Source: Candidatus Omnitrophota bacterium
GTDB taxonomy: Bacteria > Omnitrophota > Gorgyraeia > Zapsychrales > JANLHA01
Reading direction: 5' to 3'
Assembly: GCA_023247795.1 (NCBI GenBank)
Contig: JAHFFT010000010.1
Span: 1-58,220, forward strand
Length of the DNA stretch: 58,220 bases
This document shows, one piece after another, positions 44 to 52,500 of the stretch; the first letter of the stretch is position 1; every line of letters begins with the position of its first letter. The notes beneath the pieces were generated by a model. That model ran no database searches. It was not told where the DNA came from and saw only the letters and a list, made by a program, of their open reading frames with translations. The translations under genes were made by a program, and so were the position numbers.

Positions 44-106
44 GTGGGGGCCATGGCTTTAATGCTTGGCCTGGCCATCGTTTCCGTTGGTGGAAAGGCG
101 CTTGCC
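44..106 (+). other. Signal-peptide-like hydrophobic N-terminus of gene 1
   Basis: MGAMALMLGLAIVSVGGKALA is a hydrophobic core ending in an A-L-A cleavage-type motif. Lys residues lie just upstream in the still-open frame. Confidence 0.5.
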
Positions 107-17660: not shown

Positions 17661-17699
17661 ATAGTTCTCATTGACAATGAGAACTATTGATGTTATCCT
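17661..17699 (+). promoter_or_regulatory. Sigma70-like promoter overlapped by a 27-bp palindromic operator, upstream of the ATPase gene
   Basis: ATAGTTCTCATT-GAC-AATGAGAACTAT (17661-17687) has perfect 12-bp inverted arms. TTGACA (17671-17676) sits in its centre. A 17-nt spacer leads to an extended -10 TGtTATCCT (17691-17699). Confidence 0.5.
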
Positions 17700-17730
17700 C
17701 TCATTTAGAATGAGAAGAAAGGAGGCTGCG

Positions 17731-19487: not shown

Positions 19488-19598
19488 ATGTATTCCTTTC
19501 GCACCCCAAGAGGTTACAAACCGCACACCAGGATTTTAGCCGGCCTCATCATCTTCTTTTTTATATCCAATGAACTCTTTCGATCGGTTGCCTTTGCC
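19488..19598 (+). other. Signal peptide of gene 2
   Basis: MYSFRTPRGYKPHTRILAGLIIFFFISNELFRSVAFA/NP has a basic n-region, a hydrophobic core and an A-F-A cleavage-type site. Confidence 0.6.
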
Positions 19599-28500: not shown

Positions 28501-31500
28501 ACGCGATCGGCGAAGATTTCAGTCAGATGACCAGTTTCGAAGAGATTGAAACGGCTGTCACGGATCGATTGGCCAAACTCTCTGAAATGATTAGTCAAAC
28601 CGAAAATATTAATAGTGATCTTGAACAGGCCGTTGAAAATCTTGAAAACGCTATCACGAAAAATTCAGCGGAACAGATTTTTGTGAATGTTCATCCTGGC
28701 GATTCGATTGTGTTGAATGCTGATTTTGGTTCAGCAACGGAAATCCTTTGGCGCCAAATCGAAGGACCGGTGGTGAGTTTACAGAAGCTGGATGACCAAC
28801 ACATCCGTCTGCAGGTGCCAAGACAAAGCAGCGTTAATGAATTGATCATCGGGGTCAAGGGGCTTGATCCCCATGGGCACATCGTTTATGAAGACACTTC
28901 ACTCAACGGAATCCAATATCTTGAATTGGGAGGACAAGCCATTCCTATTCAAGCGACGTCGGAACTTCATTATCAATTTGATGAGACTGGACGAGTGATA
29001 ATGGTCACTGACGCCCAGAACCGGCTTTTGTACCAAGCTGGAAACGCGCAAAATTCATCGGGGAATGGAATCATTTATAGCGGTATTCCTGGGGCCGATC
29101 ACCGGGTGCTGCGTCTTAAAAATATCCAGCGGTTCGACGATAGTTTTGAGTCGGTCATGGAAGAGACGGGTTTGAACATCAATCTGGAAGACCCTCCTTT
29201 CGCAAATACTCTCAGCGTTGATCAGTTGGCGCAACTCGCCGATGCTTTAAGACCTTCTGATCATGACGTTTTTGTTTTTGAACCGGTTAGGCCCGGTGTC
29301 ACTCGGATCGATTTGGCGGAAAAAACCGATACATTAGACTATCTTCCCGAACGAGGCGCTTTTCACGTTGACATTGTTGTCAAAAAGCAGGATGGAAGTA
29401 ACCCCAACACCAGATCGCTTTTCATCGATGAAAGCCAAAATGATCAGGTCGTTGAAGTTTTTGAAAACGATATCATCAAGGTCCGGCTGCCAGTCCATCT
29501 TCCTTATCGATGGGAATTGCAAGATGAACATGTTTTAACCCCGATGGATTCCAATGTCAGTGACGCAGAAAGTGAATACTCCTTTGCTGTCCAAACAAAA
29601 GGCGGGGAACTCTTAAGTTTTTATGAAATAGATCCGTCAAACGCCAGAATCTTGAATGAATTTGCCGTTTATGTCCAAGCCTCAGAAAAGAATGAAGAAG
29701 ATGAACCTCGTCGGATTGTTTTAAGGCCGGGCGACCGTGGCCGCAAGATTTCGGTCCGTGTCGGCGATACGATTGCTTTGGAATTCCCGCGTCAAACCGA
29801 GACTTCGGCGTGGATTGAACGCGTTGTCGAAAATTCACAAATGACGGTTGTGCATGATGAGCTGGGGCATGTTATCCGTGAGAATTATTCGGATGGAACA
29901 TCGATCATTTACGATCCTCAAGGAAAATTAAAGCAAGTTATGGATCTTAGCGGTAAGATTCTTATTGATAAAAACGATGAGCGTTATTTGCTGCAGACCG
30001 ATAAATTCGGGAATCAGTTTGAGTGGACGTATGTTAAAAACGCTCAGCAGCAGTTGATAGCAACTTTGATCACGGGTCCATCGGGAACAAGGATTTTCAA
30101 TGCTCAGGGTGAATTATGGAAGTTGACCGGATTGACACTCGAACAAAAAAAGCGAATCGATCAGTATTTAGGTCAGCATCCACAGTCTTTACCGCAGCCT
30201 CCACCCGCGGACCCATATTTGTATTGGATCGAACACATCAATGCTTTCCGCAATGATCCTAAACTTGGCGCCCTTTTGCACGATGTTGTCACAGTAACTT
30301 ATGAAAAAGATGATGAAGATCAGATCATTGCCAAAATTGAGAGTCGTCCCGGATCTTCGATCAGAACGGAATATGATGATAAGGGCAATCCGGTTAAGGT
30401 GGTTGATTCCGACGGATCGACGATTGAGACCAGTTACACTTACGACGATGAAGGCAAAATTTTAGCGTCAACGGTGACAACCGATGCCGCGGTCATGGGC
30501 TATGATGCCAGCGGTACCCTCCTTTATCAGCAAAGCCGGCTGAACTCTTCCTTCGCGTCAGCATTCAACTATCTTCGGGGAAATGATCAAACCATTTTGA
30601 CGGAGTTTGAAGAGCGTTCCAACGGGGTCTTGGTCCGCACGGACTATTCGGTGAGCGAACAGGAAAGAGCTGTTGTCGACCTGGATGGAACCATCCATTA
30701 TTCGTCGGAAAGACTTCCAGAGAAAATCACGGAATACATTCAAATAGCGTTCATCCTGCAAGCCCTTTCGGAATCCGAGATTGTTGATCAGATGGAATTT
30801 GACACGACCGGAGAGCGGGTCGAACCTTTCAGCCAGGATACACTTTGGGTGAAGTGGACGGAAGGGGCGGAATCATCGGAGATTGGGAGTCTGCTGGAGT
30901 CGGCCGGCCTGGAATTGGTCGCGGGTGCCGTTCGGGGAGGTTTTCATAAAATTCATCTTCTCGAAGAAGCGTTGCGGCCGGGCCGGGAAACAACATACGA
31001 ATATGAATGGGACAATGGACGTGTTATTGAAACCCGTATCCGAGCCGCGGAGGGTGTCATCGTGATCAACGCCTCCGGAGAAACAATCGCCAGCGTTGAT
31101 GGCCGCCGCCCGTCAGAAATCATTTTGGTCGAAATAACGCATGACCCTTTAACCGGTTTTGTGGAAAAGGTCAACAAATACAAACACAGTGATGCCGACA
31201 GCAATTTTTTTGAGGATCCCCTCAAGTACCGCGATCTGACATTCAAGAACGATGAGATTTTGTCAGCGGAGACCTATGAGACGATGATAAAAAACGCGGA
31301 TGGGAATCTTGTTAATGTCGATGACGTGATCCAAGCCGAACTGTCCGCCCCTGGCAGGACAGGAACATTTCCTCACACGGCATTTGATTTGATCCGCAGT
31401 TCGGAACAAATCAACCGGTTAAGGGAAGCGCGCTATTACGCCCCCGACCGGATTGTGCTCGTGAAACATATTTATGAAGGACGCCGTCTGAAGGAAATCC

Positions 31501-34500
31501 AATCTTACAACATTGATGTTAATGCTCCTCTGAGCCCTGGTGCTTTGCGGCAAAGGACCGTCTATGCCGAGGACATCGTTGATGAGGAATTTCCGGACCT
31601 GGATGAGTCCAGTCGTATTTCCTATGAATTGTTTTATCAGGGGCCCGCGGGCCAGGAAACAAAGGCCACCCGGAGCGATTTCACTTATAAAGCTGGTTCC
31701 GTGACCGAACTGGAGGCTTACCACAAATTCAATATTGCCGGTGACATTCCCGATAATACCACTGATATCCTGTATCTTTTGTCCGACGTCATCCCAACAC
31801 AGACGGACCATGGTGATTATGGTTATGAAGAAGATGAATTCGGACCGCTGACAACATTTTTCTTTTATTCCAACGGTAAATATCATGATTTCCGAGCGCA
31901 GGACACCGATGACAGCTTTTATGTCGATTATTCGGTCAGCTACGCGGGAAAATTGACTGAAATTCCTCAAGGCGCTAACCCGGTCCGGATCACCACGTTC
32001 ATCAAGATGGGTGATGATGAATTCAAACGCGAAACCAAACTTTTCCGACGGGAAGGAGATCGAATCACGACGGACATCGCGAAAATTTTGCGTTATCAAT
32101 ACAGTTTGGGATATTTGGAAAGTGGTGATGGGGATGCCGCCACCCTTGACCTGGTTGAGGAGTTTGAGCCTGATCCTCAAAGTGAGCAGGATGGATATAA
32201 ATTGATCCGCAACAACTTTTATCGAGGAGAAGTGCGGGTCAAAACTGTTGATAACCTTCAGAAAACGGCCACTTATTATTTTAATTCCGTTGAAGACCAC
32301 GGCAATCATCCTTTCAGCGCCGAACTTTTGCAAGATTATTTCGGAAACAGTTTTTCTAACCTGTTGGATTTTTTTGCTGTTACCGCCGCGGATCTTGATG
32401 CGGACAGGGATGATGAGGCTGAGGATGAGGCTGATGAGGATGAGAGTGATGATCGCAAAGCTGATCTGGATTTTGCCGTGACTGTTCATGAACGTCACGA
32501 CAAGGCCATGGAAAAAAGTTTGTTGATTTATCGTGGCGAGAGCACAAAGGAACTGATTGATCGATCTTTCACGGCTGACGGAAGTATTACGGTTTTTAGC
32601 TATAAGTCCGATGGGAGTCGGGATTATTCCGTGAGTTATGATCGTGAACGTTCTAACGCGGTTGTCAAGACCTGGTATCGAGGTCAGCCCGGGCAGGAAC
32701 TGGTTTCGGAAGTCCAATTCGCCGATGGGTCAACCGCGGTTTATCGTTATCTCGAAGATCGCAATGAAAATTATGTCCTGGACCCTCAGGAAGACAGCAA
32801 TGGCGATGGCCGGCTGAATCTTTCGGTTGTTCAAAAAAATAAATGGATTGACCAGGACACTCAGTGGACCACAACAGAATATTATCGCCCGAGCGCGTCA
32901 GGGGAAGATGATGAGCTCGCTTTACAGTTGAGCCCGACGGGAAGTCCGATGGGATTCATCAATGTTAAGAAGGAAGACGGTCATTACGGCGATATTGATT
33001 ATACCGAACAGCGGGTCATTCAGTATGTGAACAGGGAGCATATTTCGTTAACCGGCATCCCTTTGGCCGACAGTCTTGCCGGGATGTTAGGAAGCGCCCA
33101 AGACGTTGATGATCCGGTTTTTCTCAGCCGAATCGGGGCCGCTGATACGATTGAGACTGTTCAAGTCAGTAGCCTCGACGGAGATTTGATCGCGGTTTAT
33201 CAGCCCAACGGTGTCGTGCAGCGATTTGTCAATGAACGCAATGAGCGATCAGAAATCATCAGAACGCTTGAAACCTCGGAATTTGATGCCAACCACGATG
33301 GAGATTTTGACGATCCGCAGGAATATTCCTTTAGTGAAGAGGTTCTGAATTATACCTTGGCTGACGCGTCTATCGAAGGTTATTTCAGGGGCCGCCCCAA
33401 GAGCCGTAAAGATAAAAATGGATTCATTACCGACTATGAATACGCGGTGAATTATTTAGGCGAAATCATCGGAGTTAAGGAAATTGACATCAATCGGTTC
33501 GGCCAGGGCGATCAAAATACTCGCGCGGATAAACCGTTTCGTCAAATTTATTATTTCACTTCGGACTATGCCCCGAATCCAGTCTGGAAAGGCGAGATCG
33601 CCAAAATCATTGATCAAAATGGTCAGATCGTTTATTTCACCTATGAGAAGGGCCCCCAAGGCCAGACTCGACGGGTGATGGAGCGAAATTCTCATAGAAT
33701 TCAGAGCGAGCGTCGTTTTAATGAAGCAGGTCAACTCATTGAGGTGAACGATCCATTGGGTTTCAACATCAAAAGTGAGTATCTGTTGAATGATCAAGGC
33801 CAAACGATCGCTGAGGCTCGCCATTATACCGGAGCGATAACAACGCTTGATGGGAAGGTTGATGTGGATCACGAAGAGTTTTATCAATATGACTCTCGAG
33901 GACGAGTGGTCCGTTTCATTGATCGCAACGGACTCTTGACCAATATCACTTATGTCGATGATGCCAAGGGTAACACGATCGTCAAGCGAACAACCACTTA
34001 TTTGAAAGCAATGGGCGAGGACAATTATGAAAAAGTCACGGTCGCTATGCCCTCGCTTCAAAATATTTCAGATCTGACTTGGGATTTTGATGTTGAATTG
34101 ACGACCGTTGAAGATTTTGACCTGGTTAGCAGTCTGCCCGTCAAGCGGGTTGATCCAGACCAGCGGGTGAGTGAGTTTGATTATGATTTTGATTCCTTGG
34201 GCAATCTGAACCAACGCGACACCAAAATCAAGGAAATGGAAAGTGACGTTGAAAAATCCTTTGTGGAAAAAACAGAATTTTATGTCAGCGACGGACTGAA
34301 TTATCGCAAAGGTGATATCAAAGCGCAGGTGGATAGAAATGGTCTTCGCACCGAGATGAGTTATCACCGTAATCACAAGGAACAAATCACATCGATGCGC
34401 CGCACAGTGATAATTCCGGCGGACTATGACGTGGCCGGACATGATATCACTTATTCGGAAGAGACCTATCTTGATCCAGTGACCGGCACCGTGACCGCGA

Positions 34501-37500
34501 CCCGAGACCGCAACGGACAGGTCCAGCAATTCCATCATGTTTACGACGATCGTTTGAATGTCACGCGAACCACCGAACTTCATTTGCGTCAGGGGCTTTA
34601 TTTGGATGGGATCGATGACTACGGTAAGATCGGCGCGCAAGGGGCCTTGGAGAATCTTACGGATGACGTTCACGGCTTTACCTACAGCGTTTGGTTTTAC
34701 GCGACCGCGATGCCCAGTCAAGATGCCTTGAATCAGGATGGATTTATCATTGCTCGTCCGGAGATCAATTCTTCCGAAGGATTGGATGGTATCTTTATCA
34801 AAAATGTCGGAGATGACTTTGCTGGTAAGGCCGGAGCCATTCAATCCTATATTGATCAAACAACCGGAGAGCGCCAGAACGCCCTGATCTTTACGAATCA
34901 AAATATCGTGGGTCTTAACCGCTGGGTCAACCTTGTTATGGTCGTTGGAGCAGATCGGACCATGAAATTTTTTATGGACGGGGTTCTGCAAGGAGCCGTC
35001 GTGATTCCCGGTCAGCTGAAAGATCATGGCACGCGGCCTTATATGGTCGGCGGGTCGCAATGGATCGACAATGCCGCCGGGGTGGTTGATGATCTGGCCA
35101 TCATGAGCCGGGCCTTGACGAATGAGGAGGTTTTTGATCTTTGGCAAAATGGGATCGAAGACATCAGCCAAAGTGGGCTGGAAGCCTATTATTCTTTTGA
35201 CAACTCTTACGTCGATGATGGACTCTTTGTCATTGATGATTCCGCGCGCGGACATCCTATGGCCCTAGAATTGGGCGCGGGGATACGGGCCGGCGATATG
35301 CGGGGAGAATCGCGGTTTGAGAGCGGGGATGCCAGCGTGCAGATGGTGAAACAATTCAACTCCATGGGCGAAATGCAAAGTGTTTTTGTCGATAAGGCCG
35401 GCACGGAACATGACACGACCGCAAGTTATCAAAGAAAATTCGATGGTCTCGGGCGTTTGATCGAGGCGATTGAGACCGTAAATCCATCGCAGCCAGGTGG
35501 TGACGTGATTAAGAATGTGACAAAGTATAACCTCAGAGGATCGGTGGTTCTCACCCAGAAAATCGTGAACGATGTTGTCAACGATGAGACCAGTTATTAC
35601 GATTTTGTCATTGATGGACAAGGGAATCTCGTTTCGGAAAAAAGCCGCGCGTCAAAAAGAGACGGCCGGGTTGTTGATCTTGTGACGCTGATGGAATTTT
35701 CGCCCCTGGGAGATACCGTCCGTCAGGAAAATCCAGACCTTGGACAAGTCGAAGAATTGAAATATGAAAAAGACAGCCGAGGGCGGGTCATGGTCGTTTA
35801 CAAAAAGACGATTAAAACGTTGTCGTCAGAACTCCCAATCACCATCGAAGGGATTGCTGATGGCAGTCCACGTGTTGCCGAGACTTTTACCGCGCAATTT
35901 TTTAATCAGCAAGGAGATCTTGTGGCGACCATTGATAAAGATGGGCATAAAACCATCATGAATTCACTGAAGGACGCGGATGGCGATAACGTGATTGTGA
36001 CTTCGATGGATTGGCAGGGAAAAATCACGACCCAGATCTTTAATAAGGAAGGGGATCTCCTGCATGAGATTGATCCGACGGGCAGGGTCATGAATTTCAC
36101 CTATGTCTGGGACGCTCTTCATCATATCCGCAGTGTCACGATGTCGGATGACATTGTTCTTTATGATGCGGACAGTGTTCCGACGGTGCCGATTGAATTG
36201 TTGACCAGCGGCAACGCCTATTCCTCCGGACATAATGATGAATTGACTGAAACGCAGAGCCGAAGCTTAGCTCGTTATTCCGTGATGGCCAAGGGAAGCG
36301 GATTATTGAAGATCGTTATGCTGGATTATGTAGGCAACCCGATTCCGGGACGGGAAATTTATTCTTCCGCGATCGCTGGTTCCGAAGAACAGATCGTGAC
36401 TTTTGCGCCGGACCCGGATGTGCGTCGTATCCGGATTGTGGGGTCGGGAACTCTGACAAAGTATAAGGTCGTCAAAGCCCCGTGGACATTTGGAGCTTCG
36501 GGGACAGAAGAAACGTATAGCTCGGTGCTGACCGAAAACGAAGCGGTGTCAGCGGCCGGATACACACTCAACGGTCTTCTATCCGCGCCAGTGAGTGTCA
36601 TTCACAAAGACGGCAAGCGTTCGACGTTCACCTATGATGAAGTCGATCAAAAGACCGGTGAGATCATTCAGTCCACGGAAACATTATCGAATGGCGACAC
36701 GATTGTCCGGCGCTATAAGGATGGATTTTTGATCAGCCAGGTCAACAATGTGACCGAACGCGACGCGGACAGCAAAGGACCATTTCTTCATATCATTGAG
36801 GATCCGCATCATGGATCGCTCAAAATCAATCTTGATGGGTCGGTGACGTATACGCCGGACACGGGTTCAACAAAGAATGATCGATTTGTCTACGCGCTCA
36901 CCGATAAGGACGGAAAAATCGTTAAGATCGATGATGAGGACAGTAAAGTCGTCGATCTTAATGTCATCGGTGGTCAAGTCAGCAATCTTCCGAGTAACGC
37001 GCTTAAGCTGGATGGTCAGGTGGATTCGGTCGCGGTCCCCATCAAGACGCCAGAAATGATGTATCTGATGTACGGAGGATTTGCTTTTGATTTCGATTTT
37101 ATGCGGACCGGAGCGCAAAACATGGACGCCGCTGAGCAAGACGGGTTTCTCGTCTCCCGCCGTGGTTATGACAATACCGGTAAAGTGAACCGGGACGCTT
37201 ATCACGATGGGGTTTTCATCAATCAGGCGTCTGGTAAGTTGGAAGCGGCCATTTGGCACGACAATGGTGATGGAAAACCACCGGTGAGAACTGATATCAA
37301 ATCAAATTTTGTTATCGCAAACAATGTTTGGTATCACATCACGATGTCGGTCGGCATTGATCAGGCGTATTCCAAGATCGCCGCTGATTACGGTGACAAT
37401 GTGACGAATTTCAATGCCCTCCTCGATCAAATTGGTGCAGACAGTGGCCTTTATGCCGAATTTTTCCGTCAGGGGATTCCCAATAAGAAGGGATCAGAAT

Positions 37501-40500
37501 ATCCGACAACCAATTCTTACTGGCGGGCGTTGTTAAAAGATTCTCTGATCAATCAAAATCCCCATTTCAACATTGCTTCGTTATTCGTCGATGGCAATGT
37601 GGTCAAAACAAAGGTCTTTTTTAAACCGCTCCGTTATTTGGGGGACAATCCTTATCTGATTGGTGGGCAGGACTGGCTTTACAATGCCAATGGTTTGATC
37701 GACAATGCGGCTTTTTTTAACCGTTCGCAAAGTGCTTCTGACATTCGCGCCCGTCGAACAACTGGTTATGATCCGGGCCTGGATCCGTCCTTGGTCGCGT
37801 TTTATAATTTTGATCAGGTTGCCAACAATAAATTCATTGATGAGACCGGACACGGCAATGAGGCGATCTTTAACATGACCTATGCCGATGGAAAGAACGC
37901 TGCTTTGGAAACCGGTCAGAACATCAATTTTAGAACGACGCCCTATCCAGATTCTTTAGCGGTTCATTACAACTCATCATTGAAATTGAATCTGCCAGGG
38001 ATGGATGTTTCACCACCGCAGCGACGAACGAAACAATCGACGTTCAGCTATGTTGTTGACAGTAAACTCAATCGAAAAAAGCTCATCCAGAATGATAGCG
38101 GGGATGAAGCGCCGACGGTCACAACGTATGGATTTGCCGGACCAGAAAATGAGACCATCAATTTCGCGTATGGCAATGAGACTTATGTCAGCCACGTGCC
38201 GGCCTATGAGGCGGCCTGGGTCGAATCGTCGTCGGGAAAAGCCTATTACGATTATCTTTTCAACAATGAAGGGGACGTGGTCAGCCGCAATCTCATTTCG
38301 CAGACGCATTTGGATGAGCCTGTTGATTGGCAGGGTGAATGGGCGAAAAGTTTTCGTTCCGAAAAGTATCTTCCTTTTGAGCAGTTGAGCGCGCGGCAAA
38401 AGGCCATCTTCGCGCAGACCCTCACGAGTCGCGGGATTGGGCTTCAACAAGAAGCCGGTGATGCCGATGGCGATGCCGCCATACGATTTCTTTATCAGCA
38501 AATAGCCGCGGTCATGGCGCAAGGGACCCCTCAGTGGAATTTTGGTTTGGCTGATGTCTTTGCCGTGGCCCAACAGGCGGTTGATTGGCGGTATTATTCG
38601 GCATGGGTCAATGAAAACGCGGGGACGACATTCCAGGTCCAGCCGCTGCGGGGAAGTTTTCTTGATTCGGAATATTGGGGACCTGATAAAGTCTTGGACG
38701 GAATAGCCACTGAAAAGCAAATCGCGGACGGGATCTCCACCCGAGATCAGGTGACGAGCACCATCACCACCGTTGGGATTTTTAATCCTTCGCTTTTTAT
38801 CAGTCATCTCAAATCCATCGCGCGTTCCCGGACCGAGGGGCTAGCAAAAATATTTTACCTTCCAGAACCGGCCTATGAAGGCGATGGGAACTGGAACTGG
38901 GTTAAGGATGGCCAGCCGGAGCGCCTCGGTCATATCGGGTCGACGGAGTTTGAAGTCATCAACACCATTGATAATGGAATGTATCAGGATTATCGGGAAG
39001 CGGATGCTTCAAATCAGCTGACCTTTTACGCGAATCTCGCTGAATTCGGTGGCGCTGGAAATTATCAGGTCCGTCTCCATTTTATGGAACCCAACCTCAG
39101 GGTCTTGGGCCACGCTGATCCCAGCAAACTCAATTCAAACCGAACGGATGTGGAACTCAGGTTGGTTTCAACACCTTTACCAGGCGACGGTATTGTCGTA
39201 AAAGCGGATTTTGAACCGTTGCATAACCCTAACGGATATTTTGATCTTTATCCTCCAACCTCTGCCGTTGTGGCCGGACTTAAAGCCGCGGGATATATCG
39301 CCAATGACCTATACGTATCTACTTCTTACACCGCATTGAGTAACACATTTAAAAGATGGTTTCCCGAACTTACGGAGGAAGAATTTACGGACATCGACAA
39401 TTCGCTGGCATCAAAGTCCATACTGAATCGCAACTATACGCAAAATATTTTTAATAGCTTGATTACGTTAGGATACATCAACGCGCTAGGGGTGATTCAA
39501 AATAAATTCAAACTCCTCAAAAACGCCCAGGATGCCGCGTTTGTGTTGGATCCGAACTTTGAAATTCATCGGGCAGGAATTTTTTCCATTGTCCAGTCAA
39601 ACAGCAATAACGATTTGGATGTCCTGCCGTTCTGGTCGTTGGACAATGCCCCTCCCACCGATGCTGATCGGGCCAAACGGTTGTTTGATGTGAATATTCA
39701 GGGACAGTTGGTTGAAAATGATTTTGACATTGTCACCGCCATGGATGATCGCGATCGTTTGCAGGTCACAACACTGGGGACGTATTACCCATTTCATGGC
39801 TTGACCGCGGCGGTCACCCGCGCGTATAACGTCTTGGTCGGCGAAAACAATATGTTGACCATTCAGTTTGATGGGAATCAAGTCGGGTATTCCGGTGATG
39901 ATCTCTTCACCACGGCACCGGTGATCTCTGGGATTGAAATCTTGAACGCCCAAGGAAGGGTTGTCCGACGGGTGAATGTGGGAGGAGAACGCTATGATCC
40001 CTCGGGAAGTCATTATATTTCTCCGCAAAACGCCGAATCGCTTTTCCTTGCTGAGCAAGGGACCGTTAGCAGCCAGCCGGCGTTTGTTCCCACGCATCCA
40101 TTGGGGTCGATTGTTCATGGGGAGCAGTTATGGTCTTCCATTCCTAATCGTTCGGTTGAAGATATTCGCAGCACCATCACCAGTTCGCAAGACGCGGCGT
40201 TGGCAGAATTTGCTGAGGCCGCAACGCAAATGAACGGAAGGCATCTTTCCGCGGTTTCCTACAATGATACTATCGCGGCTTATCAACGCAGTTTTCTACC
40301 GGCCATTGAACGCAAATTGCGAATGGTCTTTCAGGAGCAATTGGGTCGGGACATCTGGACTGCCCAATCTCCGCGGATTCAAGGCCGCGACGTGAGTCTC
40401 TCTGAGTTGGATTATTTTACCCAGCAGTATCAAGCAGGGACATCGATCCAAGAGATCAAAGATTTGATCACGTCGTCCAGGTATAATAACAACGAATTGG

Positions 40501-43500
40501 GTCGGCAGAATGCTTTCCGATCGTCGGTGATAACCAATGTCATGGCCGCGCTGGCCGATTATCGCCAGCAAGGATTAACATCTTCGCTCGACAACAAAAC
40601 ATTTCAAGGTTTGCACGCCTTCCTCACCGCCCAGCAAATGAAAACCATCCTGCTGACCGATCAAGATGTGGCCCATCTTCAAGAATTCTTAAACACGAGC
40701 GACAGCCATTTTGGCCGCAGTGCTTATGACAGTCTTTTGGTCATGCTGGGTCTGAGCGCGGTTGATTTGCAGGATCCTCGACGGGTACAGATCGCGACTG
40801 CACTGATTTTGGTCGATATTCTTTTAGGTATCATCCGTTCTGACAGTCAGAAAGGCATGGCCTTGATCACGTCCATGTTTGCCCTGCATCTGGTGGCTGG
40901 GGCTAAGGGGATAGAGACCACGGGATACAATCTTGTGGCCAATGAGCAAGACTGGACTCAGGCCTTGGACTGGATTGAGCAGATTATCAATTCTGGTGGA
41001 CAGACCCAGCCACGGGGGCAAATATTTTATTTGGAAAATGGCCATTTCGTGACCGTAACCGAGATCAATCGAACGGCGCAGACCATCACGTTTAAAGATC
41101 ATCAAGAGACACGCACGGTATCTTTGGCTGAGTTTAAAAAGATATGGACAGGAAAGGTTTTGTTGGATCATTCAGTGGTATCGGCGTTACATCTCCAGAC
41201 GGTGATCGCCGATAAAATTTTGACCAATGACGTTATGAAAGAAACGCGTGGGGCGGGATTGTTCTCGTGGCTGGGTAAAATTTTTAAAGCCATTGGAAAC
41301 TGGATTGCTGATCATTGGAAAGCAATTCTTATTGTCGCGGTGATGTTGGTGACGATCGGTATTGCCGCTCCTGGGGTTTTTAGCGCGATGGGTCTTAGCT
41401 CACTTGTAAGCACCATTGGCAACGCGATCAGTGCCGCATGGACCGCGATCAGTGGCGCGTTTAGTTCGGCGTTCACGGCTGGCAGCACGAGCGGCATTGC
41501 CGCTTCAGCGACAAGTACAGCGGCATCGACTAGCGGTATTGGCGGAGCGGTTATGGGAGCAGGCGCCCATTTGATGACCACGGGCGCTGGATTCTGGTCA
41601 TTGGGTTTGGGATCGATTGCGTCAGGTGGTATTGGGGGAACCTTGCTTGGCATCGGACAACTCGCGCTGGGCGCTGTGACTTTTGCCGCGGGGGCCATTA
41701 CTTTTGGCGTTGGCTATTTTGTTTCATCACTGCAGGAGCAAATCAAAGGTTTTTACAAAGGGATCACCAATCCCTTTGAAGGGACGCACAGCGCTTTCTC
41801 GACGATCACCAAACCTTTCCAAGATTTTTCAGTCAAAGCGGCATTGAAAGCCGCGGCCGCGGGATACAAATTATCGCAAAGCGTTCAAAGGACATATAAC
41901 TTTGTCAAAACCAGCATCACCCAGGGGATTGGTGTTGCCCTCAAAGCATTTGCCCTGGACATTGGTTTTTCCATTTTGGCCGCGGCCACCATTGATTCGA
42001 TCAGCGCCGGACTCGAAGCGTTGTTCTCCGGCAAAGAGATGATCGAAGTATTTGACACCAAGACCGGCAAGGTTGTCGATACCTTTGATGTGGCGGACCG
42101 GGCCAGTGTTTTAGAACAGTTTGGTGATAAGCCTGGACAGATTGGCCGTTATACCATCAGGACCCGCACCAGCATTTGGTCAAAGCTTTTCCCACAGGTC
42201 AAACAAGGGGGAGAATATCTTTCCGCGGCATCGGCGAATACTGATACCTTGAGTTTTGGTTGGTCAAGCTTTGCCCAGTCAGCGCATTTGTCGTTGGTCC
42301 AGTCAATTGAAATTTTATCCAACGCGGTCGCGGACATTTTTATCAAGACGGAGCAGAATTTCTTTTTAAGGCTGGGGATCAACGCGGGGATCAGTGCTTC
42401 TCTCACCGCTGGTGGACTGTATCTTTCCAACGGAACACCGGAACAAATCATCCAGGCCGTCACCAGAAGATTTGGTAACGCCGCTTTTGACTCATTGACC
42501 ACCGAAGTGATGAATGAATTGGCGGCCCATGTCGAAAATAAATATCTCAAGTTATATCTGACGAAACTTTCAGCGCAATCGATCGGTGCTGTGCGCGGAG
42601 TTCTTGTGCCCAAATTAGAAGATTTGTTGGCGCCGATTTTAACCAAGGCGTTTAACATCCGTTCTGATGACCGCACCGGCATGCGGCATATTTTGGAACA
42701 GCAGGGTTTTATTGCTGTTCGGGAAAACGCGACTGATGATCTGGGAGAGATTGTCGGATATCGATGGAGCGACGGGACAAGGAGTTATTACATTGAAAAT
42801 ACCCCGTCCATAACACCCGATGGCAGCATTGTTTTCAACCGTTATTATTCTTCGAGTGCCAATGGTGAACTGATTTTGGTGAACGGTTATTCCGAGAAAA
42901 CAACATTCAATGAGAATGGCGATAAGATCACGATCAAAGAATGGGCGGTTGATGGGCATCGGGAAGTTGAATACACCAAGGAAGAATATTTTGATCCATC
43001 TTTACCGTATGAATGGCTGTCTACGCCGATTGTGACGGTGTCCAAGATGGTTTTTGAGGGCACAAGAATGCTTTCGGATGTCACGGTGATCACCTCATCG
43101 GATGAGAAAACAACGATCACCACGACGTTTGATGCGCAGACGGGCAAACCCACATTAGTCATAACGGTCATTGAGACCGGTCAGGAAACCAGGACATCGA
43201 GGACGAATTTTGAAGACGGGAAAAGAGTTTCGGATTTAACGGTGATCATCACACCTGAAGGGCGAACAACGATTACAACAGTTTTTGACAAAGAGACCGG
43301 TCAACAAAGACTTGTTATCACGGACATGGAAACGGACCAGGAAACCAGAAAATCAACGACGACGTATGTCGGTGGGAAAAAAGTTTCGGATCTAACAGTG
43401 ATCACCTCGCCTGGTCAGAAAGTGACAATCACCACAGCTTTCGACGGGGAGACAGTCTTATCAAGAACGATCGAAACGATCAAATACGGTTATAAGGAAA

Positions 43501-46500
43501 CCGTAATCTCCACAACAGTTTTCGAAGGGTTGAGGAGAGTTTCAGATCAGACGGTCATCATCGTCCCCGATGGAAGAACAACCATCATCACCGGTTTTGA
43601 TGGGGACACGATCCTTTCGCGGGTAACGACGCACGAGACTCTTTCCGGCGTCTCGATTGAAGTCAGCCAGTATGAGAATGGGGATTTGACTGGCAGCCGC
43701 GTTTGGACATCGACTTCCGACGATGAATCGCAAGGGACATTGGTCATCCGTGATGGCCAGGGTCGTACCATGCTCGTTTATGAAGGCATTAGCCGTGGTC
43801 TTATGGAAGAAGACCAGTCTGATCAAAAACCCATTTTGATCACGAGTTTTAATCCTGCAACACGACAGGCCATGATCAATCGCATTGAGCAGGCCTTCGG
43901 GACCCTCGGCAATTTTGATTTCGCCCGGTATGGATTGGGTTCACTCAGCCGTATTATCGCCAATATTCGTTTTGGCGGATTTGAATTTTATGTCGAGGAG
44001 ACGGAAGATAAAATTGTTTTTTACAAGACGGACCATCCGGGAGAACCCATTATGATCTTGACCAGAACTTCCGGGCCGTTGGACGTGATTTTGGGCCGGT
44101 CGGAAAAATGGAATCTCATTGTGTTCACCGCGAACGGCGCGGACCGTCATGGTGATTTTCTCAATATCCTTACCGGCGTCAAAGACGTTTATGCCAACGG
44201 TCAATTGAGATCAAGAGAGGTGGGTGAAATCAATTTGTTCACGAATCATTTGACGCCTTTCAAGATCATCACTTATCGAGATGATGGCGAATGGACGTCG
44301 ATCAAAGTGCTCGAGACCGATGGTGGCGGCATCACTTTTCCGGGATTTCAAAACGTCCGGTTTATCGTCAGCCGCACGGAGGTCGGTGAAAATCAATGGA
44401 CGACACAGTACTGGAACGTGTCCGGCAGCAATCAGGAAATCGCGCAAGATCATTTTTTAAGCCCTGGTTCTAAATTGACCGTTGACGCGGACGGAAATTC
44501 TTTTCTATCCATTGGCGGCACGTTTCTAGTCGATGGTAAGGCGTATTTCCGTCGGGATGACAGCCACATCGAAATCTCTCTGGTCGACTGGGACCGCGGG
44601 GGCTTGTACCGCGTCAATGTTTACGCGGCTGATTTGACCGTGTCTTTAAATCAGCTTGACATCCATCATTTGATTTCTTACAAAATCACCGACTACGAGG
44701 GCAACGTGGTGGAAAGTGTCGCCCCAGGTGATGTTGCCGGGACTTATGTGAGAACCTCTCAGGACGACATCGGTCACGTCTACCGCGCGGTTTATCAAGC
44801 ATCGTCCCTTGAGCAGATTTCAAACGCGAATCGTATTTCTTACACAATCACGATATGGGGTCAGGAGGTTGAGAATTTTGAAGCCCTTCCTGGCGGGCTA
44901 TTTGTCATCAATAAAATCAATCTGCAGACGGGAGAAATTGTCACCCACAATTTCCGTGGTGAAACATTTGAAGAAAGCATGGAGTATTCTTTTCAGCATA
45001 CCACACGGGAAGGGCTGGTCACGGAAAGCGCTGTTGTGCGCGGTAACGGAACCATTGAGCGAATGACGCGCAATGTCAAGACTGGTGAGGTCCGCAATAT
45101 GATTTTCCACGGCAGTTCGTTGACCGACGTGACCCCGGAAAATCTTTATTCCTTTGAAGTTTGGAATTCGAGAGGACAGAAAATAGCAAGCCGTGATCCC
45201 CTGGATGAAGGCGGTTTTGTGGACACCGAATGGGACCTGGCGAAGAATACCGTGACCGCGATCAGTTATAACGCGCAGGGGCAGAAAACCATGTTGATCA
45301 GGCATGGTCCTTCCGGGCCCCTCATGATCGCGTTTGTCAGCGGCGGTGAGGTGAATATGTTAACAAATCAATACACTTCTAATCCCACTGATGTTTTGTT
45401 GCAAGGACGGGTGATTAGGGGGAGGCTTGTGGGTGAGTGGGACCCTATCAATCGGCAGGTCCTTAAAGAAAATGCTTACGTATTTACCGGTCGGGAGTTG
45501 ACGAGGGTCTATGGTCCCGCGGTTTTAGCGAAGCTGGGGTTAGGAACAATCAATCCGGATGAACAATATTTTTTCTACGGAGACGCGATTTTGGCTGATG
45601 AAGCAAATCCTTATGGACAAAACCTTTTTATCCGGGCGGCATCAGGCAATGTGTCTAGACAATATTCCGCGATATGGAGACAAACCGGCGGTGTCATTCC
45701 TTTTGATTTCGAGTTCATTGGAAACATTACCTCGGGAACAACTGCCCATGGGGCCCAATTCTCTAACACCCGAGACGCCAATGGCGTCCTCATTGATCAG
45801 CGCGTTACTATGCCGTCGCAGTGGGGGGGAACATCAACGATGATCGTTGATCGGAATTTTGTTGCCACTCAAATTGAGACGAAACCGGATGGCAGCAGGG
45901 TTATTCAAACCGGTGGGGGGCTGATCTATTACATCAAACCTGGTGGCACCGACTCGGACAGAGTACTTTTAAATGGTCGCGGCTTTGGTTATGACGCTCG
46001 TACATTTGTCGACGGACGGCCGATGAGCCAGACCGAAAGTTGGAGAGTGAGTTTGGCCCAGAATGGTATCAGGACCGGTGTTCAGAATGGAGGGATGGGG
46101 GTTGGGATCGACGCTTTGATCGCGTTTTACAACTCCGGACAGATTGCCATCGGCGGCGCTTCGAATCTTTTGGGAGCGGGTGTTAATCTTTTTACCGACG
46201 GAGACTCCTTCTTGACCACATTGGGTGGTGGTTTGGTACAGAGTGGCGTTATTGGTCTTGGCAGTGACTTTAAGGCTGGCCCGGTGGGAGCGACGGTTGG
46301 TGTGGCTGCCGCCCTTGCCGGTCTTGGCTATTTGGGTGGTGTTAGTTTATCCGGCGGCGCTTCGGCAGCAGTTTCAAGTATTGGTAATGGGCTCATGAAC
46401 GCTGGCCGGGCTTATTTGGTTTATGACGCGCTGAATCAATTTGATGACGGTAACTACACAAAATTCGCAATGGATTTAGCGCTTCTTCCACTGGGACTCA

Positions 46501-49500
46501 AATCTTTGCCGGCGGGACTGATGACCCCGGCTAAACTCCTTGCCGGAGGCCTTCTTGGCTATGGCGCGTTTCAAACAGATAATCCTTATGAAAGAATTCT
46601 TTACGGAATTGGAGCGTTTGGAGCGTTGGGTTCTCTGGGGACAGGTGCCCTGGCGAGTCTTGCTAATCTTGTTCCCGGCGGATATTTTGGCGACGCGGAA
46701 CTATTATCACTCATGACGATACCGGCATGGGCGACCACAGCGGGCAAGTTTGCTCTTCCTGCCGCCTCATTGTTAGGAGGCGCGTATTTAGGAACGGATT
46801 ATTTACTCAATTATGAGGACCGCAATTTTAGTCAGGCGCTAGGCGCTGTTGCTTTACTTGCCATAGGCGCTATCGGTGGGGCCGGAGCATTGGCAGGTAC
46901 TGGGTTAGGCACGAGATTGTTTGGTCCGGGCGCCCAATTAGCGCAGCAATTCAATTCGATCGTTACGGTTGGCGAGGCGCTTTCGATGGCCGGTGCCGCG
47001 ACAGCTCAAGGTCTTTTGATTTCACCAAAGCTTTATGGATTGAGCAATTTTATTGTTAATCCCTTGTTCAATTTTGCTGAGCGGGCGGGAATTTATCACC
47101 CGACCTATAGCTATCTCGGTCAATCTTATCAAGGCGAGGAACTCTTGCAGTTATACAGCCGGCTTAATCCCAGTCAATTGAGTCAGGTAAGACCAGGCAG
47201 CTTTTTAACATCGATACAACAAAATATGCTGGGTTCGGCGCAGGGTGATTTGCAGTCGATCATGTTTACGACGGCTTTTGGCGCGCCATTTTCTTTTCTT
47301 ACCAAATTTGGTCTTGAGCCCGTTATCAATGGCGGCCTTGCCGGTCTCGCCGGGAATTATAGAAATTACGCGCTGTTCGCTGATCGGATCAGGAATGTTT
47401 ATAACACCTTCGCCGGTGGATCACTGGGTCTGGAATGGATTGGTGAGAATGTTCTAAAAAATGCTCCAGCGGAGTTTCGAGAATTTTTCCGTATTGTTGC
47501 CTCCGGGGTCGATGAGTGGGTTGTGGAAGACTATGCTTCGAAGCTGGCAACATCGATTGGGTTGCCAGATTTCATTTCTGAACAACTGGCAGAAATTTTA
47601 AGTTCGGGGGTGGAATACAATGCTGGTTATCAGTATCAGAATTTTTCTAATGTGATTATTGGTTCCGCCAATTTGGGAGACATTTCGAGAAGCGGTTACA
47701 CGGTTATTGGCCCAACCGGACAAATCAACACGCTGCAATTCCAACAATATTTAGTGGATCGTTTCGATATTTCTGATGAATTGGCCAGTCGTTTCGCGCA
47801 GAGCACGTTTTTGGCTGATGCGTTTATGACGGCCGTGTCAGGCGGACAATTCAGTTTGGTCGATTTGAACCAGTCCATCGTGGAAAACCTGCTTCTCACC
47901 CAAGCCATGGGGCAGATTTTAACAGCCGGGTCAGTGACCAACAGCATATTTCAGGGATTGGATTTTGGGCAGGGGCAAACGGCGCCAGTGACCAGAGAGG
48001 TCATTGAGGATTTCTTGACCGATACGTTAAAAGTGACGGTGCCAACACCGACACTGGATCTGATTTATTTTGCGTTGAGCGGTATCAGCACTTTGAATCC
48101 CAGTCAGCGAACGGCCTTGGCCAATGCCATTAGGATTTATGGGTTGGATATCGCGGCAGAACAGAGCGGGGAAACCAATGTACCACCAGCGGAAAAATTT
48201 GCCGCCTACACCCAACTGCAGGCGCTGATCCCAGTGCCGTTTGGCTGGGATCCAACAGAGGTTGTAAGACCACCGTCGCAGTTGACCGGACAAGCGAAAC
48301 TGGAAATGCGTGATCCAGGACGTCCAGCGGAATTGAACATTTACGTTCAGGGCGGACAGCGTATTACCGTGCAAGTGGACAACCCAGCTACATTTCAAGC
48401 TGTTTATACGCAATTGGCCGCCCAGGGTGGGCGCATGGAATTTGTCCAAAATGGCGGCGCGCAGATCCGTATTCTTAGCACGGCAGGAAATCCGATTTTA
48501 ACCGGCACGTTGGTTTTACCGACGGGAGTTGCTTTGGCGGATATCATACTCAATTTGGATATCCAGACCGGGACTTATTTGGATGTGCCGAACGCTTTTA
48601 AACAAGCTGTTGTTCAGGGGATTCAGCAAACCGCGCTCGAATACAGCAATGATTTGGCGGAACAGACAGAAGGGCTGGCCGAAAGTGCCGTCCGAAATCT
48701 GCAGATCGCGCCATTTTTGATTCAGAGCACCATGACCAAAGCGCTCAAGCTCGCTGATCTGCTGAAAAGAGGATCTTTGGGAACCGAAGCCCGGCAGATC
48801 CGGTTCGATCTCGAGAAGATTCTTTTGGCCGTTACTCCGCTGCTGAATGAAGATGCCATTTTGAATTCAATGGACCAGGAAATAAAAGCGGATGTCTTGT
48901 TTATGGTCATGGCATTGAATGACGCGATCAAGAATTCGGCAAATCGGAAATTGTTGAATGAAACTAAAACGATTTTTGACAATTTGTTGAGTCTTGGTGA
49001 ATATTCCTATGAACAGTTGGTGATGGTTAAAGACCTGCTGGCTGGACAGTGGAACGGCAGGTCCTTTGTTGAAAGTTTCAATTTGTTCAGATCATTTAGA
49101 TTAGAAGAAGATCCAGCCTTTGCGGCTAAAATGATTGGGTCAACTGTTACAAAAAATGATAGGAGGTCGATTTTTACCGCGATTGATGCTGCGAGGAGCA
49201 GGCCCGGAGGAACGACTTCTCTTGCCCAAATTCCTCGAGAGGGTTTTGATCATTTGCAAGATGCCGTTGCTGATTACATCGGTGGCAGCACAGTTCTAAT
49301 GGGAGAAGAGAGACAGGTCATCCTCGATGCCGCGCGAGGAAAACCCATTACGACAATGAAGGGCGCAACGATTGCGGATCCTTACCGGGTGGAATTGATT
49401 CAGGTGGATTTGGGTGATCAGAAGACCCATAGGATGGCCGAAGGCTCTAAATGGCCTGGACCTGTGGCTGTTAGACGTCTGGAACTTGACGATAACAATT

Positions 49501-52500
49501 CAATTGTCTTGCGCGTTTATGTGACAAAAGCACGGATGGGAGATGCTTTAAATAGCGATGATATGATCACTCTCGCTGAAGAAATCAAGCATGAGCTGGA
49601 TGAAGGGGTGTTGGGCAAGTCGCATCCAGAGGCGGTCTTAAGAGAGATTGATTTGGAAAATGGCGACCATGAGGAGATGCTTTCGTTGGCCACTAAGTAT
49701 CGTATGCGATTATTATCTCCAGAAAATTTGATTGATTTGATTGAAGGCACAGCAAATAAACACACTGAAAACTACAAGTTACACGCGAATGGATTGATCG
49801 ATAAACAGACCTATTTACGCCTTGTCCAACATACCATTGCTATTTTTGAGGAAGCAATCGTATTGCTGGAAAATGAGCAATTCCTTGCTTCGTTGGCATT
49901 GAGACAAGCCAATGCTTTTGTTTCCATATTGAAATCTTCGAACAAGGATCAGCTTGCTGAGTATTTTAAAACTTGGGAAATCCCTAGGTATGGTCCGATT
50001 GAGATGCGTTTATTTTGTTTGATTATTGCTATGAGTATTGATAGTACTAACCTGGATAAGATTATTAGTGTTGTCTTAAGTGGAGAAATTTCATCAGCAC
50101 AAAAGGATCGTCTTTCGGATTTTGTCATACAGGTATTAAATTCACGAAATAGTATCATTAGTCAGAACATGAAGTCTCCAGGAACTACGATTGAGTCGGC
50201 AGACAAAGGCGCGAGGAATAGCGATGTGAATTTAGCGAGAAACAATAATAGAGTAAAGACTTTAGGGAATGACAATAAATTTGCCGATGGCACAACAGTC
50301 TTGGAGAAAACGGCAAGTATCATCGAAGCCATGCAGCCTCCGGTTGGTTTGTCCGGTGAAGCGCTTGAAAGATTTAATCGAGAAAGAGATTTTCAGACGC
50401 AGGTGCTGCGGCAAGGGAATTATAAGATTGGGAGTAAGATCATTCAGCAGTTCAAAATTGAAGTGGTTGATCTCGAAGGTCGGGAGGCCTTTTCCGTCAT
50501 TAGTGATCAATCACAAGGCCGTGGGACAGGAATATTTTGGCAGGGAGAAAAAGATGGGTTCGTTCATATTTATATCACCAAAGCTTATTTGGAGCGTCTC
50601 ATTCGTCTGAATCAGCCGGTTATCCTTGCTGAAGTATTTAAACATGAGTTGGACCAAGCCATATTTGGTTACCGGCCGATCCAGACTGTGGCCCGGGAAA
50701 TCGATTTGGAACCCGGCGCTGACCACGCGCTTTCACTGGCCACCAAAGACCTTTTGTATCAAAGGATGGGGCAAACTCCAATCCAGTATATCGTCTACCT
50801 CTCCGGCCTCATTGACAATACTGAAACCAAAAAACAAGAAATCCGTAACGCTTATACGGCAGGAAATCTTACCGTCCAAGAACGCGACCGGCTTTTGGCC
50901 ATGGCCGATGAGGTCAAGGCCGAGGCCAATCATATTCTCAACATTTCCGGTCCTTTAGAAGTGACGCGCGACGCGAATGGCCGGGTCAATTTTATTCACT
51001 ACACCGATTCTTCAAATCCTCTTCAAGTGATAAAAGGATCGATTGTTCCGAAGTACGACGCGGCAGGTAAGCTCATCGATCTTGAAGGGACGATTCCTGA
51101 TTCCATACTCGATTATCTTTTCGCGAACGCGAACAATGTGATTTTGTGGGGCGCAAATGCGCAAGGGGTTTTAGCGGTGCTTCAGGCGAAATCCAGACCT
51201 AACCATACTGCTGAAGTGGTTGGAACGCATCCCTTCTTAGTTAATCTTTTTGATGGGACAGCGAAACAAAGGCTTTATGTGGCAGATGTTCATGGAGTTG
51301 TGAGGCCGTCTGTTTTCTCTAAGCCCAGTCAGGGACTCTTTAATTTATTAAACAGAGTGAGCAGCTCGCATTTTAATGAAGTGATGGATGCCGCTACGGG
51401 AATCATCCAGAGCGTCACTAACGAAAGAGTGGGGGATGCAGAAGTTTATGCCTATTTGATTTCTCACAGTCGTGAGCAGGTATTAGGTTTGTCTTCACGT
51501 GCATCTGCCACAGACTTTCGGTATTTATTAGAATTAAAAGATGCAATGGATTCTGTTGGAATGTTAAGCGGCAATCAATTAAATCAAGCCGCCATGAGTT
51601 ATTTGAGTGGTTTGGATACTTCCTACGAAATTTTACGCGCGCATGTCAATCAAGTCATCAGAAATTCGGGATCAAGTTCTGTGATTAGTAACGTTCAGGA
51701 AATTGTTCAGCTTAATCTTTGGGGCGTTGACGATGGACTGGAAACCAAAGTGTTTCAAGTGGAAGTTTTTCTAAGAGATGGCAGACGCGTGCAGTTTGCT
51801 TTGAATGTAGCGCGCGATACCACAACTTCTTCAAGCGATGTTAAAACGACATCCCAATTTATGCGTTCAAACTATGAATTAAATGAAGGTGGTCTTGCAG
51901 AAGTTTTTTCAGAGTCATCCGCTGTTGCAGTTGCGACTTTAAGTGGTCCTCAGAACGTTCAAGTGATGGCCGGCGCCTGGCTTGAAAATAGCAGAAAACT
52001 TAAAATTAAGGCGAATACCGGGCCTTTATTTTATGCGGTCGAACCAAACTCAAATAGAGAAATACCTATAAGCCGCGCGGAATCAAATACGATATGGTCC
52101 CAAATTGTCAGATTGATGACACTTAATTCTTCCATCGAATCATCCACGGGATCAGCTTTTGTTGTTTTCACTGACATTGCCCGCAATGACTATGTTCAAA
52201 TGGGAAATGGGGATATTCGCCTTACGTGGAGCGATGGTGTTCAAAAGGTCAGCGACCCAGCCCTTATTTTAGCGCGTGGTCTGCTTGTCCACACAACCGT
52301 TGTGCGTGATGGGACAGCAGAGCTCGCGAACGTTTATTGGGATGAGCCGGGACTTGCCATTCAGGCGATTGAAAGTGGATTTCTGCAACGGGCGCGCCGC
52401 CAGGCCCAATTAGAAGGACGGAGCGTTGCTGACGCGGAACGCGACGCACGAATCCAGTTGAATAATTTATGGGAACAGGCCTATACAAGGACACTTCCTT

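Follow-up and report, generated by a model that had tools for sequence, protein, structure and literature searches.

A C39-family papain-fold domain with Ser in the catalytic-Cys column and a double-glycine-leader-like motif on the same chain in a giant Omnitrophota protein

The subject of this report is a protease-like module encoded in a 58,220-nucleotide stretch of DNA from Candidatus Omnitrophota bacterium (contig JAHFFT010000010.1 of assembly GCA_023247795.1), which is called the window below. The module lies within a giant open reading frame (ORF) on the forward strand, whose stop-free frame starts with an ATG at 19488 and continues past the window end, so that its product has at least 12,911 amino acids (aa). 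Over 431 aa, the stretch coding for the module (nt 40488-41780) has 100% identity with a contig from the Candidatus Omnitrophota metagenome-assembled genome (MAG) nzgw298. Scattered Pfam matches to Ig-like, cadherin-like, Laminin_G_3, RHS and malectin domains were found in the N-terminal 7,000 aa of the product, and its first residues are predicted to be a Sec-type signal peptide, with a basic N-region, the core ILAGLIIFFFI and then a putative cleavage site A-F-A|N. Because of this signal peptide and the domain content, the roughly 7,000 residues following the signal peptide are most likely exported; in terms of the module, the part that is most likely exported is the ~7,200-residue part N-terminal of the site predicted below. 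The features of the giant ORF are as follows, with the evidence used for each in parentheses.

19488..58220, forward strand: giant ORF holding the module (stop-free frame, Pfam matches, identity to nzgw298)
19488..19598, forward strand: Sec-type signal peptide, aa 1-37, with a hydrophobic span at aa 16-34 (predicted from sequence)
40680..41183, forward strand: C39-family papain-fold domain, aa 7065-7232 (Pfam, profile against PDB, hhalign, AlphaFold, Foldseek)
40707..40724, forward strand: HFGRSA motif, aa 7074-7079, with Ser7078 in the catalytic-Cys column
40719-40721, forward strand: Ser7078, candidate nucleophile (column counts, Pfam register tests, hhalign)
40791..40859, forward strand: family-specific insertion, aa 7102-7124, within IATALILVDILLGIIRSDSQKGM, about 23 residues, helical and absent from canonical C39 domains
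41043..41045, forward strand: His7186 in the GHFV strand, in the same alignment column as the catalytic His of ComA, PCAT1 and HlyB
41097..41099, forward strand: Asp7204, equivalent of the third triad residue (hhalign columns, LahT triad)
41214..41255, forward strand: double-glycine-leader-like motif KILTNDVMKETRGA, aa 7243-7256 (alignment of relatives, scoring matrix, model)
41256..41321, forward strand: amphipathic Trp/Lys-rich helix GLFSWLGKIFKAIGNWIADHWK, aa 7257-7278 (sequence; helix 195-211 of the model, at low confidence)
41322..41726, forward strand: hydrophobic cluster rich in Gly, Ala, Ser and Thr, aa 7279-7413 (composition, Kyte-Doolittle, model)

A papain/C39 fold for this domain of the giant protein is confirmed by profile comparisons and by the predicted structure. 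The Pfam family PF03412 matched the window with 24.8-26.3 bits (E=2.1e-5 to 7e-6), above its cut-off of 22, and matched 25 of the 28 relatives in our alignment A1 (best E=8.9e-11). When a profile of A1 was compared with PDB sequences, the C39 domain of PCAT1 was found at E=5e-7, together with LahT, ComA and the C39-like domain of HlyB; the family profile was needed for this, since a single-sequence phmmer search of PDB gave chance matches only, such as G-alpha and NikA. In hhalign, A1 was matched to a ComA/PCAT1/HlyB seed with 96.5% probability (96.5-96.8% across alignments). AlphaFold2 on A1 gave a model with pLDDT 90.2 and pTM 0.90, in which helices from about aa 7032 are packed onto the C39-family domain, and the top Foldseek match of this model in PDB was the HlyB C39-like domain 3zua, followed by papain-like CdiA toxin, 3b79, LahT (6mpz), PCAT1 and ComA (TM-scores per target of 0.61 for 3zua and 0.70 for 3b79).

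An earlier note on this DNA, made from the sequence alone, had pointed to a C-terminal signature of C39 peptidases in this region. Both peptides quoted there are present (HFGRSAYDSLLVMLG at aa 7074-7088 and IFYLENGHFV...WTGKVLL at aa 7180-7226); the interval start given for them, 40690, is out of frame, and the peptides are read in frame 3 from nt 40692. The signature itself was borne out by the PF03412, PCAT1 and hhalign results, and the profile and Foldseek comparisons proposed as a check matched both C39 and C39-like domains, that is, similarity to clan CA/C39 is present.

Since the family-specific insertion separates the first helix from the rest of the domain, Pfam and HMMER align the domain only from about profile position 44. 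The PF03412 match was thus limited to positions 44-131 unless the insertion was deleted, and started at about 44 in every member; after the deletion, the N-terminal half could be aligned both by Pfam and by hhalign. A Kyte-Doolittle hydrophobic stretch at aa 7100-7118 was considered as a membrane span and rejected, being a buried helix (68-83 of the model) in a confidently folded domain.

The 231-aa domain region contains no cysteine, in agreement with the earlier claim that the catalytic Cys is missing. Across 61 aligned sequences, the column of the catalytic Cys holds Ser in 58, Cys in 2 and Asn in 1, and therefore Ser is found in 58 of the 59 sequences without Cys at this column, at an overall identity of 25-30%. 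His7074, Phe7075 and Gly7076 in front of this Ser are family-specific and nearly invariant. The two Cys-bearing relatives, P0041 (KIFNCAIQSL) and P0056 (SVINCAIISL), lack the His-Phe-Gly and have their Cys exactly in the Ser7078 column. The register was tested on the Pfam profile, where position 13 was calibrated as the catalytic column with ComA C17, PCAT1 C21 and HlyB Y9. P0056 without its insertion was aligned over positions 12-129 with its natural Cys at 13, and a member of the main subfamily, stripped of the insertion and given Cys in place of Ser, was aligned over positions 13-127 with the Cys again at 13; the alignment of the Phe-to-Cys version of that member was not extended to the N-terminus. 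In hhalign, the profile of the insertion-deleted family placed "q-S-A" opposite "D-C-G" of the canonical seed. Three independent lines of sequence comparison thus show that the family-invariant Ser of HFGxSA occupies the catalytic-Cys column. Phe7075 had been considered as the Cys replacement ("N-x4-H-F-G" against "Q-x4-D-C-G") and was dropped for Ser7078 after the natural Cys variants and the register tests were taken into account. The hhalign registers obtained globally and with the N-terminal half were discarded, as HFG was paired with "KFG" at the ComA start and the nucleophile helix was mis-registered.

The other two triad positions, for which the earlier note had asked for a mapping, are retained as His7186 and Asp7204. 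The His column is invariant in A1 and holds H in 59 of the 61 sequences, and the Asp column holds D or E in 56 of the 61; the triad positions of LahT were taken from PMC6363468. The Asp follows the His by 18 residues in the window; most relatives have a spacing of 16, as do ComA, PCAT1 and LahT. The earlier aside that a Ser might act as nucleophile is upheld as to position, an invariant Ser being present in the Cys column, while its role as nucleophile is a prediction. The domain is not a C39 peptidase in the strict sense, as the defining Cys is missing, and it is not a PCAT or HlyB-type transporter domain. No match to ABC_membrane or ABC_tran at E<=0.01 was found in the giant ORF or anywhere in the 58-kb window, NCBIfam gave no match for the module or for the 5,000 residues downstream, the rest of the 58-kb window gave no other C39 match, and no second copy of the module was found in either of the two giant ORFs of the window.

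A short distance C-terminal of the fold lies the leader-like motif, in which the window has Leu at -12, Met at -7, Thr at -4, Gly at -2 and Ala at -1, followed by GLFSWLG. Ala7256|Gly7257 (nt 41255|41256) is predicted to be the bond that is cut or docked. When the alignment was followed past the end of the fold, the motif was seen in nearly all of about 60 relatives, with hydrophobic residues directly after it and with the consensus K-x-L-S-x-x-E-x-x-x-I-(R/K)-G-(A/S/G). It stands 34 residues C-terminal to the conserved W-x-G in the window and usually 25-42 residues in relatives. Among 53 relatives, position -12 is Leu, Ile or Met in 47, -11 is Ser or Thr in 37, -8 is Glu in 21 and Gln in 10, and -4 is Ile, Val or Leu in 43; -2 is Gly and -1 is Ala, Ser or Gly in all 53. 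On the level of sequence, this agrees with the consensus that PMC6363468 gives for leaders recognised and cleaved by C39 peptidases, namely Leu(-12)...Glu(-8)-Leu(-7)...Val/Ile(-4)-Gly-Gly/Ala/Ser. A position-specific scoring matrix built from distant relatives only gave 18.8 bits for the window motif, 8.1 bits for the runner-up in the 12,911 aa and at most 17.4 bits in 200 shuffles of the protein. In both AlphaFold runs the motif adjoins the domain and consists of a short helix (NDVMKE) with an extended R-G after it, with pLDDT 82 in the first model (residues 221-230) and about 93 in the second; the confidence drops right after the predicted bond.

The Cys-type relatives P0041 and P0056 also have a downstream site in cis, LNDTEMKALRGA|G and LTDSKMQSLVGA|E, respectively. 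Because both of these Cys-bearing, presumably active relatives carry such a site, the comparison suggests that cis processing was the ancestral function of the clade. In its working or its origin, the module resembles a C39 domain for leader processing that has been directed at the chain it belongs to. The motif fits both possibilities raised earlier for this region, autoprocessing and docking, with the difference that the cargo would be the protein's own juxtamembrane segment and not a foreign protein. As a separate observation, the first residue past the predicted bond is Phe in 25 and Cys in 13 of the 53 relatives (e.g. KGG|C, KGS|C); a lipoprotein box was considered for the G-[GAS]|C sites of some relatives and was dropped, since Lys or Arg stands at -3 and there is no adjacent signal peptide.

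The predicted bond is followed by the GLFSWLGKIFKAIGNWIADHWK helix, which is probably located at the membrane interface; comparable G-W-W/K-rich segments occur in P0016, P0020, P0025 and P0061. The hydrophobic cluster thereafter (aa 7279-7413) has no charged residue in 135 aa and contains 35 small-xxx-small pairs. Gly and Ala make up 19% and 20% of it, respectively (39% together, compared with about 8% each protein-wide), and Ser and Thr 23%. Clear membrane spans are seen at about 7279-7301 and 7390-7413, with two or three weaker ones between, and only two spans exceed the Kyte-Doolittle threshold of 1.6. AlphaFold modelled the region, at low confidence, as one amphipathic helix and four or five long helices, so that the "five helices" of the earlier note are not established. 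Its statement that the membrane cluster begins about 90 nt after the fold holds for the amphipathic segment, as GLFSWLG... starts 90 nt after KVLL, but the first strongly hydrophobic span starts 157 nt after it. Likewise, a Gly/Ala-rich membrane segment does adjoin the fold within a giant protein, but the fusion is not direct, since about 50 residues with the conserved motif separate the fold from the first span. Homologous clusters are found C-terminal to the motif in relatives. The cluster was also considered as an ABC transporter membrane domain, and this was rejected for want of similarity in Pfam and NCBIfam. The chain runs on for more than 5,500 residues beyond the cluster.

An exhaustive HMMER search of 1.84 billion representative proteins gave 65 relatives, mostly in proteins of 2,000-7,000 aa. 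A scan of GTDB, with one genome per species and the main-subfamily alignment, gave 68 loci, some genomes having two copies; all 68 are in MAGs labelled Omnitrophota/Omnitrophica, "uncultured Planctomycetia" or "uncultured bacterium". In the databases searched, the module appears to be confined to Omnitrophota. A word-indexed search of 5.8 billion proteins gave zero matches with either a single sequence or the 28-sequence profile; a word index may give poor access to Omnitrophota proteins that are giant or fragmentary.

Several relatives differ from the window in their construction. The 843-aa P0041 has two tandem units, a degenerate one without the His at aa ~150-370 and the Cys-type one at aa ~408-624, with a Gly-small site after each, and this protein may stand near the active ancestor from which the Ser-type module arose. 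In P0044 (aa ~2250-2600), a beta-propeller-like insert of about 300 residues splits the C39-like domain between mid-fold and the His strand, and the domain ends with a G-S|F site ahead of the membrane segment. P0006, P0007, P0009, P0011, P0017 and others have four or five amphipathic repeats (...G-L/V-D/N-P-x-L/I-S/T...G-G...) after the Gly-rich cluster and an alpha/beta-hydrolase-like "G-Y-S-G-G" region near the C-terminus; the window's subfamily is without the amphipathic repeats.

Just upstream of the module, at 40308-40480 on the forward strand (aa ~6941-7000), the segment MVFQEQLGRDIW resembles the DUF4214 motif, and DUF4214 was not reported there by Pfam at the thresholds applied; its counterpart in relatives is Y-R-x-I-L-G-R-D-P, C-terminal to long coiled-coil regions. 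The window contains a second giant ORF upstream (44-17443, forward strand; 5,799 aa) with an N-terminal membrane span at aa 13-31 and almost no Pfam matches, whose last ~200 residues are methyltransferase-like by eye. Between the two giant ORFs, the similarity is weak and limited to aa ~1611-2822 of the upstream and ~11901-12175 of the downstream product (22-24% identity). The gene between them (17671-19008, forward strand) encodes an ATPase with AAA_14 (E=8e-38) and DUF4143 (E=1e-25) and a weak Mrr_cat match at its C-terminus.

The domain shares with the C39 domains of PCAT and AMS transporters (ComA, PCAT1, LahT, CvaB) the papain-like fold, the His and Asp positions and the placement directly before a membrane domain, and the recognition motif has the form of theirs, with Leu at -12, hydrophobic positions -7 and -4 and a final Gly-Gly/Ala/Ser. 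It differs from them in the Ser for Cys, the insertion of about 23 residues and the absence of Gln at Cys-6. In addition, no ABC membrane or ATPase domain was found here, the substrate-like motif is on the same chain, and the Omnitrophota domain is probably extracytoplasmic, whereas PCAT C39 domains are cytoplasmic. The C39-like domain (CLD) of HlyB (3zua) is likewise a C39 fold without the catalytic Cys that keeps His and Asp and is next to a membrane domain, and it binds its substrate without cutting. The Cys column holds Tyr in HlyB and Ser in the Omnitrophota domain; the HlyB ligand is an RTX protein without a double-glycine leader, whereas the Omnitrophota domain has a leader-like motif in cis. 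Furthermore, the HlyB CLD forms the N-terminal, cytoplasmic end of an ABC exporter, whereas the Omnitrophota domain is internal to a giant protein bearing a signal peptide. A logic of intramolecular severing in one event, by which a huge extracellular part is parted from its anchor or payload, would be common to the present module and to GAIN, SEA and MARTX/TcdB cysteine protease domains and the "releasing peptidases" of polymorphic toxins (PMC3482391), although the folds and chemistries of all these other modules are unrelated. The RHS repeats upstream of the Omnitrophota module are a further likeness to large surface proteins and toxins with release modules. The Tox-PL-C39 of polymorphic toxins has a Cys-His-Asp triad and has been described as a toxin domain (PMC3482391).

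On the basis of sequence comparisons and models, we tentatively favour, at somewhat below an even chance, the reading that this is a single-turnover self-cleavage module freeing the ~7,200-residue exported part. The leader-like segment would dock in cis in the substrate groove, with Gly7255-Ala7256 in the active-site cleft, and the Ser-His-Asp triad would cut its own chain once, slowly, after Ala7256. Such a cut would separate the Sec-exported ~7,200 residues with Ig, cadherin, LamG, RHS and malectin domains from the membrane-anchored C-terminal part, and the exported part might then be released, or passed to a secretion system, for contact with prey; type II-like secretion systems have been reported beside such genes (bioRxiv 10.1101/2023.11.21.568195). 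A weak catalyst would be tolerable, as a single turnover in cis needs no efficient enzyme, and serine would avoid thiol oxidation if the domain is extracytoplasmic, as the signal peptide implies. Self-cleavage is favoured because the Ser is invariant, the HFG accompanies it, the Cys-type relatives have cis sites and one turnover tolerates a weak catalyst.

Several points weigh against this reading. Variants of the papain fold with Cys changed to Ser are usually poor or dead catalysts. The serine-type SERA proteins of Plasmodium (papain family C1) are a natural case of the Cys-to-Ser swap with the His kept, but they are eukaryotic and have no cis substrate motif, and the activity of SERA5 is disputed; SERA is therefore a caution and not a precedent for activity. 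HlyB-type domains keep His and Asp without cleaving, and hence conservation is no proof of catalysis. For the Ser-His geometry and for the docking of the motif, the basis is the confidence and the secondary structure of the models. The topology is uncertain, as the basic residues directly ahead of the first span would suit a domain in the cytoplasm, while the signal peptide and the domain content place the module probably outside it. In the window's own subfamily (P0001-P0005), a change of Phe to Cys, and not of Ser to Cys, recruited the N-terminal Pfam alignment. This conflict is likely due to the new "CG" dipeptide and to a first helix three residues shorter, and it counted for less in our judgement, the HFGxSA motif being clearly shared by the two subfamilies. 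Finally, the Gln of the oxyanion hole at Cys-6 is not present, the column being Ser, Asp or Asn in the 61-sequence alignment; the role of this Gln has itself been questioned for LahT (PMC6363468).

The absence of that Gln and of the catalytic Cys would also suit a domain that has lost its protease activity and acts as a non-catalytic clamp in the manner of HlyB, binding its own leader-like segment with no bond cut, and either seating the giant ectodomain rigidly on the membrane or holding the hydrophobic cluster in a defined state. The best Foldseek match is indeed the non-catalytic 3zua, the alignment has His and Asp kept in HlyB as well, and, given the narrow S1/S2 pockets of C39 domains, binding by itself might be enough to keep Gly at -2 and a small residue at -1, as may be gathered from PMC6363468. 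On the other hand, a Ser serving as a space-filler is expected to drift to Ala, Gly or Thr at 25-30% identity, and it is invariant; the His-Phe-Gly that travels with it and is missing from the two Cys-type members resembles an active-site compensation, and the cis sites of those members argue for an ancestry in processing. A clamp is, in our judgement, nearly as likely as self-cleavage.

Cleavage might also be performed in trans, by a separate Cys-type C39 (a PCAT transporter or a paralogue like P0041/P0056) or by another protease, the Ser domain then presenting or protecting the site. Cys-type members do occur in the same clade and the site fits the canonical leader consensus, but canonical PCAT C39 domains are cytoplasmic while the site is C-terminal to 7,200 Sec-exported residues, no match to a further C39 domain or to an ABC transporter domain was found in the window, and in about 60 proteins every domain is strictly paired with one site on its own chain, which is explained most simply by a cis relationship. 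We regard processing in trans as improbable. The order of a C39 domain, a double-glycine leader and a Gly-rich uncharged peptide is that of bacteriocin systems (colicin V, class II bacteriocins), and by this analogy the motif and the Gly/Ala stretch could correspond to a class II bacteriocin or microcin precursor joined to the C-terminal side of its processing domain, whose glycine zipper would enter the prey membrane after cleavage. The small-xxx-small pairs and the lack of charge in the cluster would suit such a payload, and Omnitrophota have been reported as predators (bioRxiv 10.1101/2023.11.21.568195). However, the chain continues far past the cluster, the published architecture has membrane anchors and then intracellular SecA-like domains after such C39 domains (bioRxiv 10.1101/2023.11.21.568195), and an anchor in the cell's own membrane is the simpler reading, so that a payload is very unlikely.

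Going further than self-cleavage as such, the module might be a natural serine-nucleophile C39 peptidase, with the triad and the added invariant HFG, whose one self-cut at the outer face of the membrane would be the long-suspected step dividing the giant proteins of Omnitrophota into working pieces, either releasing a ~7,200-residue adhesin-like ectodomain or exposing a glycine-zipper segment in predation. With all these elements together, this proposal is rather unlikely.

C39 domains in Omnitrophota giant proteins were already known. West-Roberts et al. 2023 (bioRxiv 10.1101/2023.11.21.568195) noted a C39-like domain close to membrane anchors, after which SecA-like domains come, and proposed cleavage of the giant proteins, and a 2026 preprint (bioRxiv 10.64898/2026.06.07.730766) contains a 24-protein PF03412 architecture cluster. 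The protein of the window is almost certainly one of these reported proteins: the identity to nzgw298 gives the Omnitrophota origin, and the length of at least 12,911 aa exceeds the 10,000 aa of the reported class. Giant proteins of the "dockerin type" carry dockerin/TSP3 repeats (bioRxiv 10.1101/2023.11.21.568195). No SecA_DEAD, dockerin or TSP3 match at E<=0.01 was found in the window, where the ORF is cut by the window end; these domains are reported to be very divergent (bioRxiv 10.1101/2023.11.21.568195). Both preprints report Pfam matches only, and the word "catalytic" is not in the 2023 text. Searches of the two texts gave neither an analysis of catalytic residues nor any mention of the Ser replacement or a cis double-glycine site, which figures or supplements could still hold; the Ser swap and the built-in site therefore appear to be unreported.

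Giant proteins of Omnitrophota reach 85,000-147,000 residues, and the literature asks whether they stay as one chain or are cut into pieces, with C39 as the likely scissors and no site or mechanism given (bioRxiv 10.1101/2023.11.21.568195; 10.64898/2026.06.07.730766). The present analysis provides a testable prediction, with Ser7078 as the candidate nucleophile, Ala7256|Gly7257 as the bond and a motif by which the corresponding bond can be located in about 60 relatives. An active serine would mean a rare switch from thiol to hydroxyl in the papain fold and unusual enzymology, with a substrate leader captured in cis; with an inactive serine, the domain would represent a novel type of pseudo-protease clamp, in which the double-glycine groove is used for intramolecular architecture. 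Either way, the motif would be a practical rule for dividing the giant proteins for structure prediction and proteomics.

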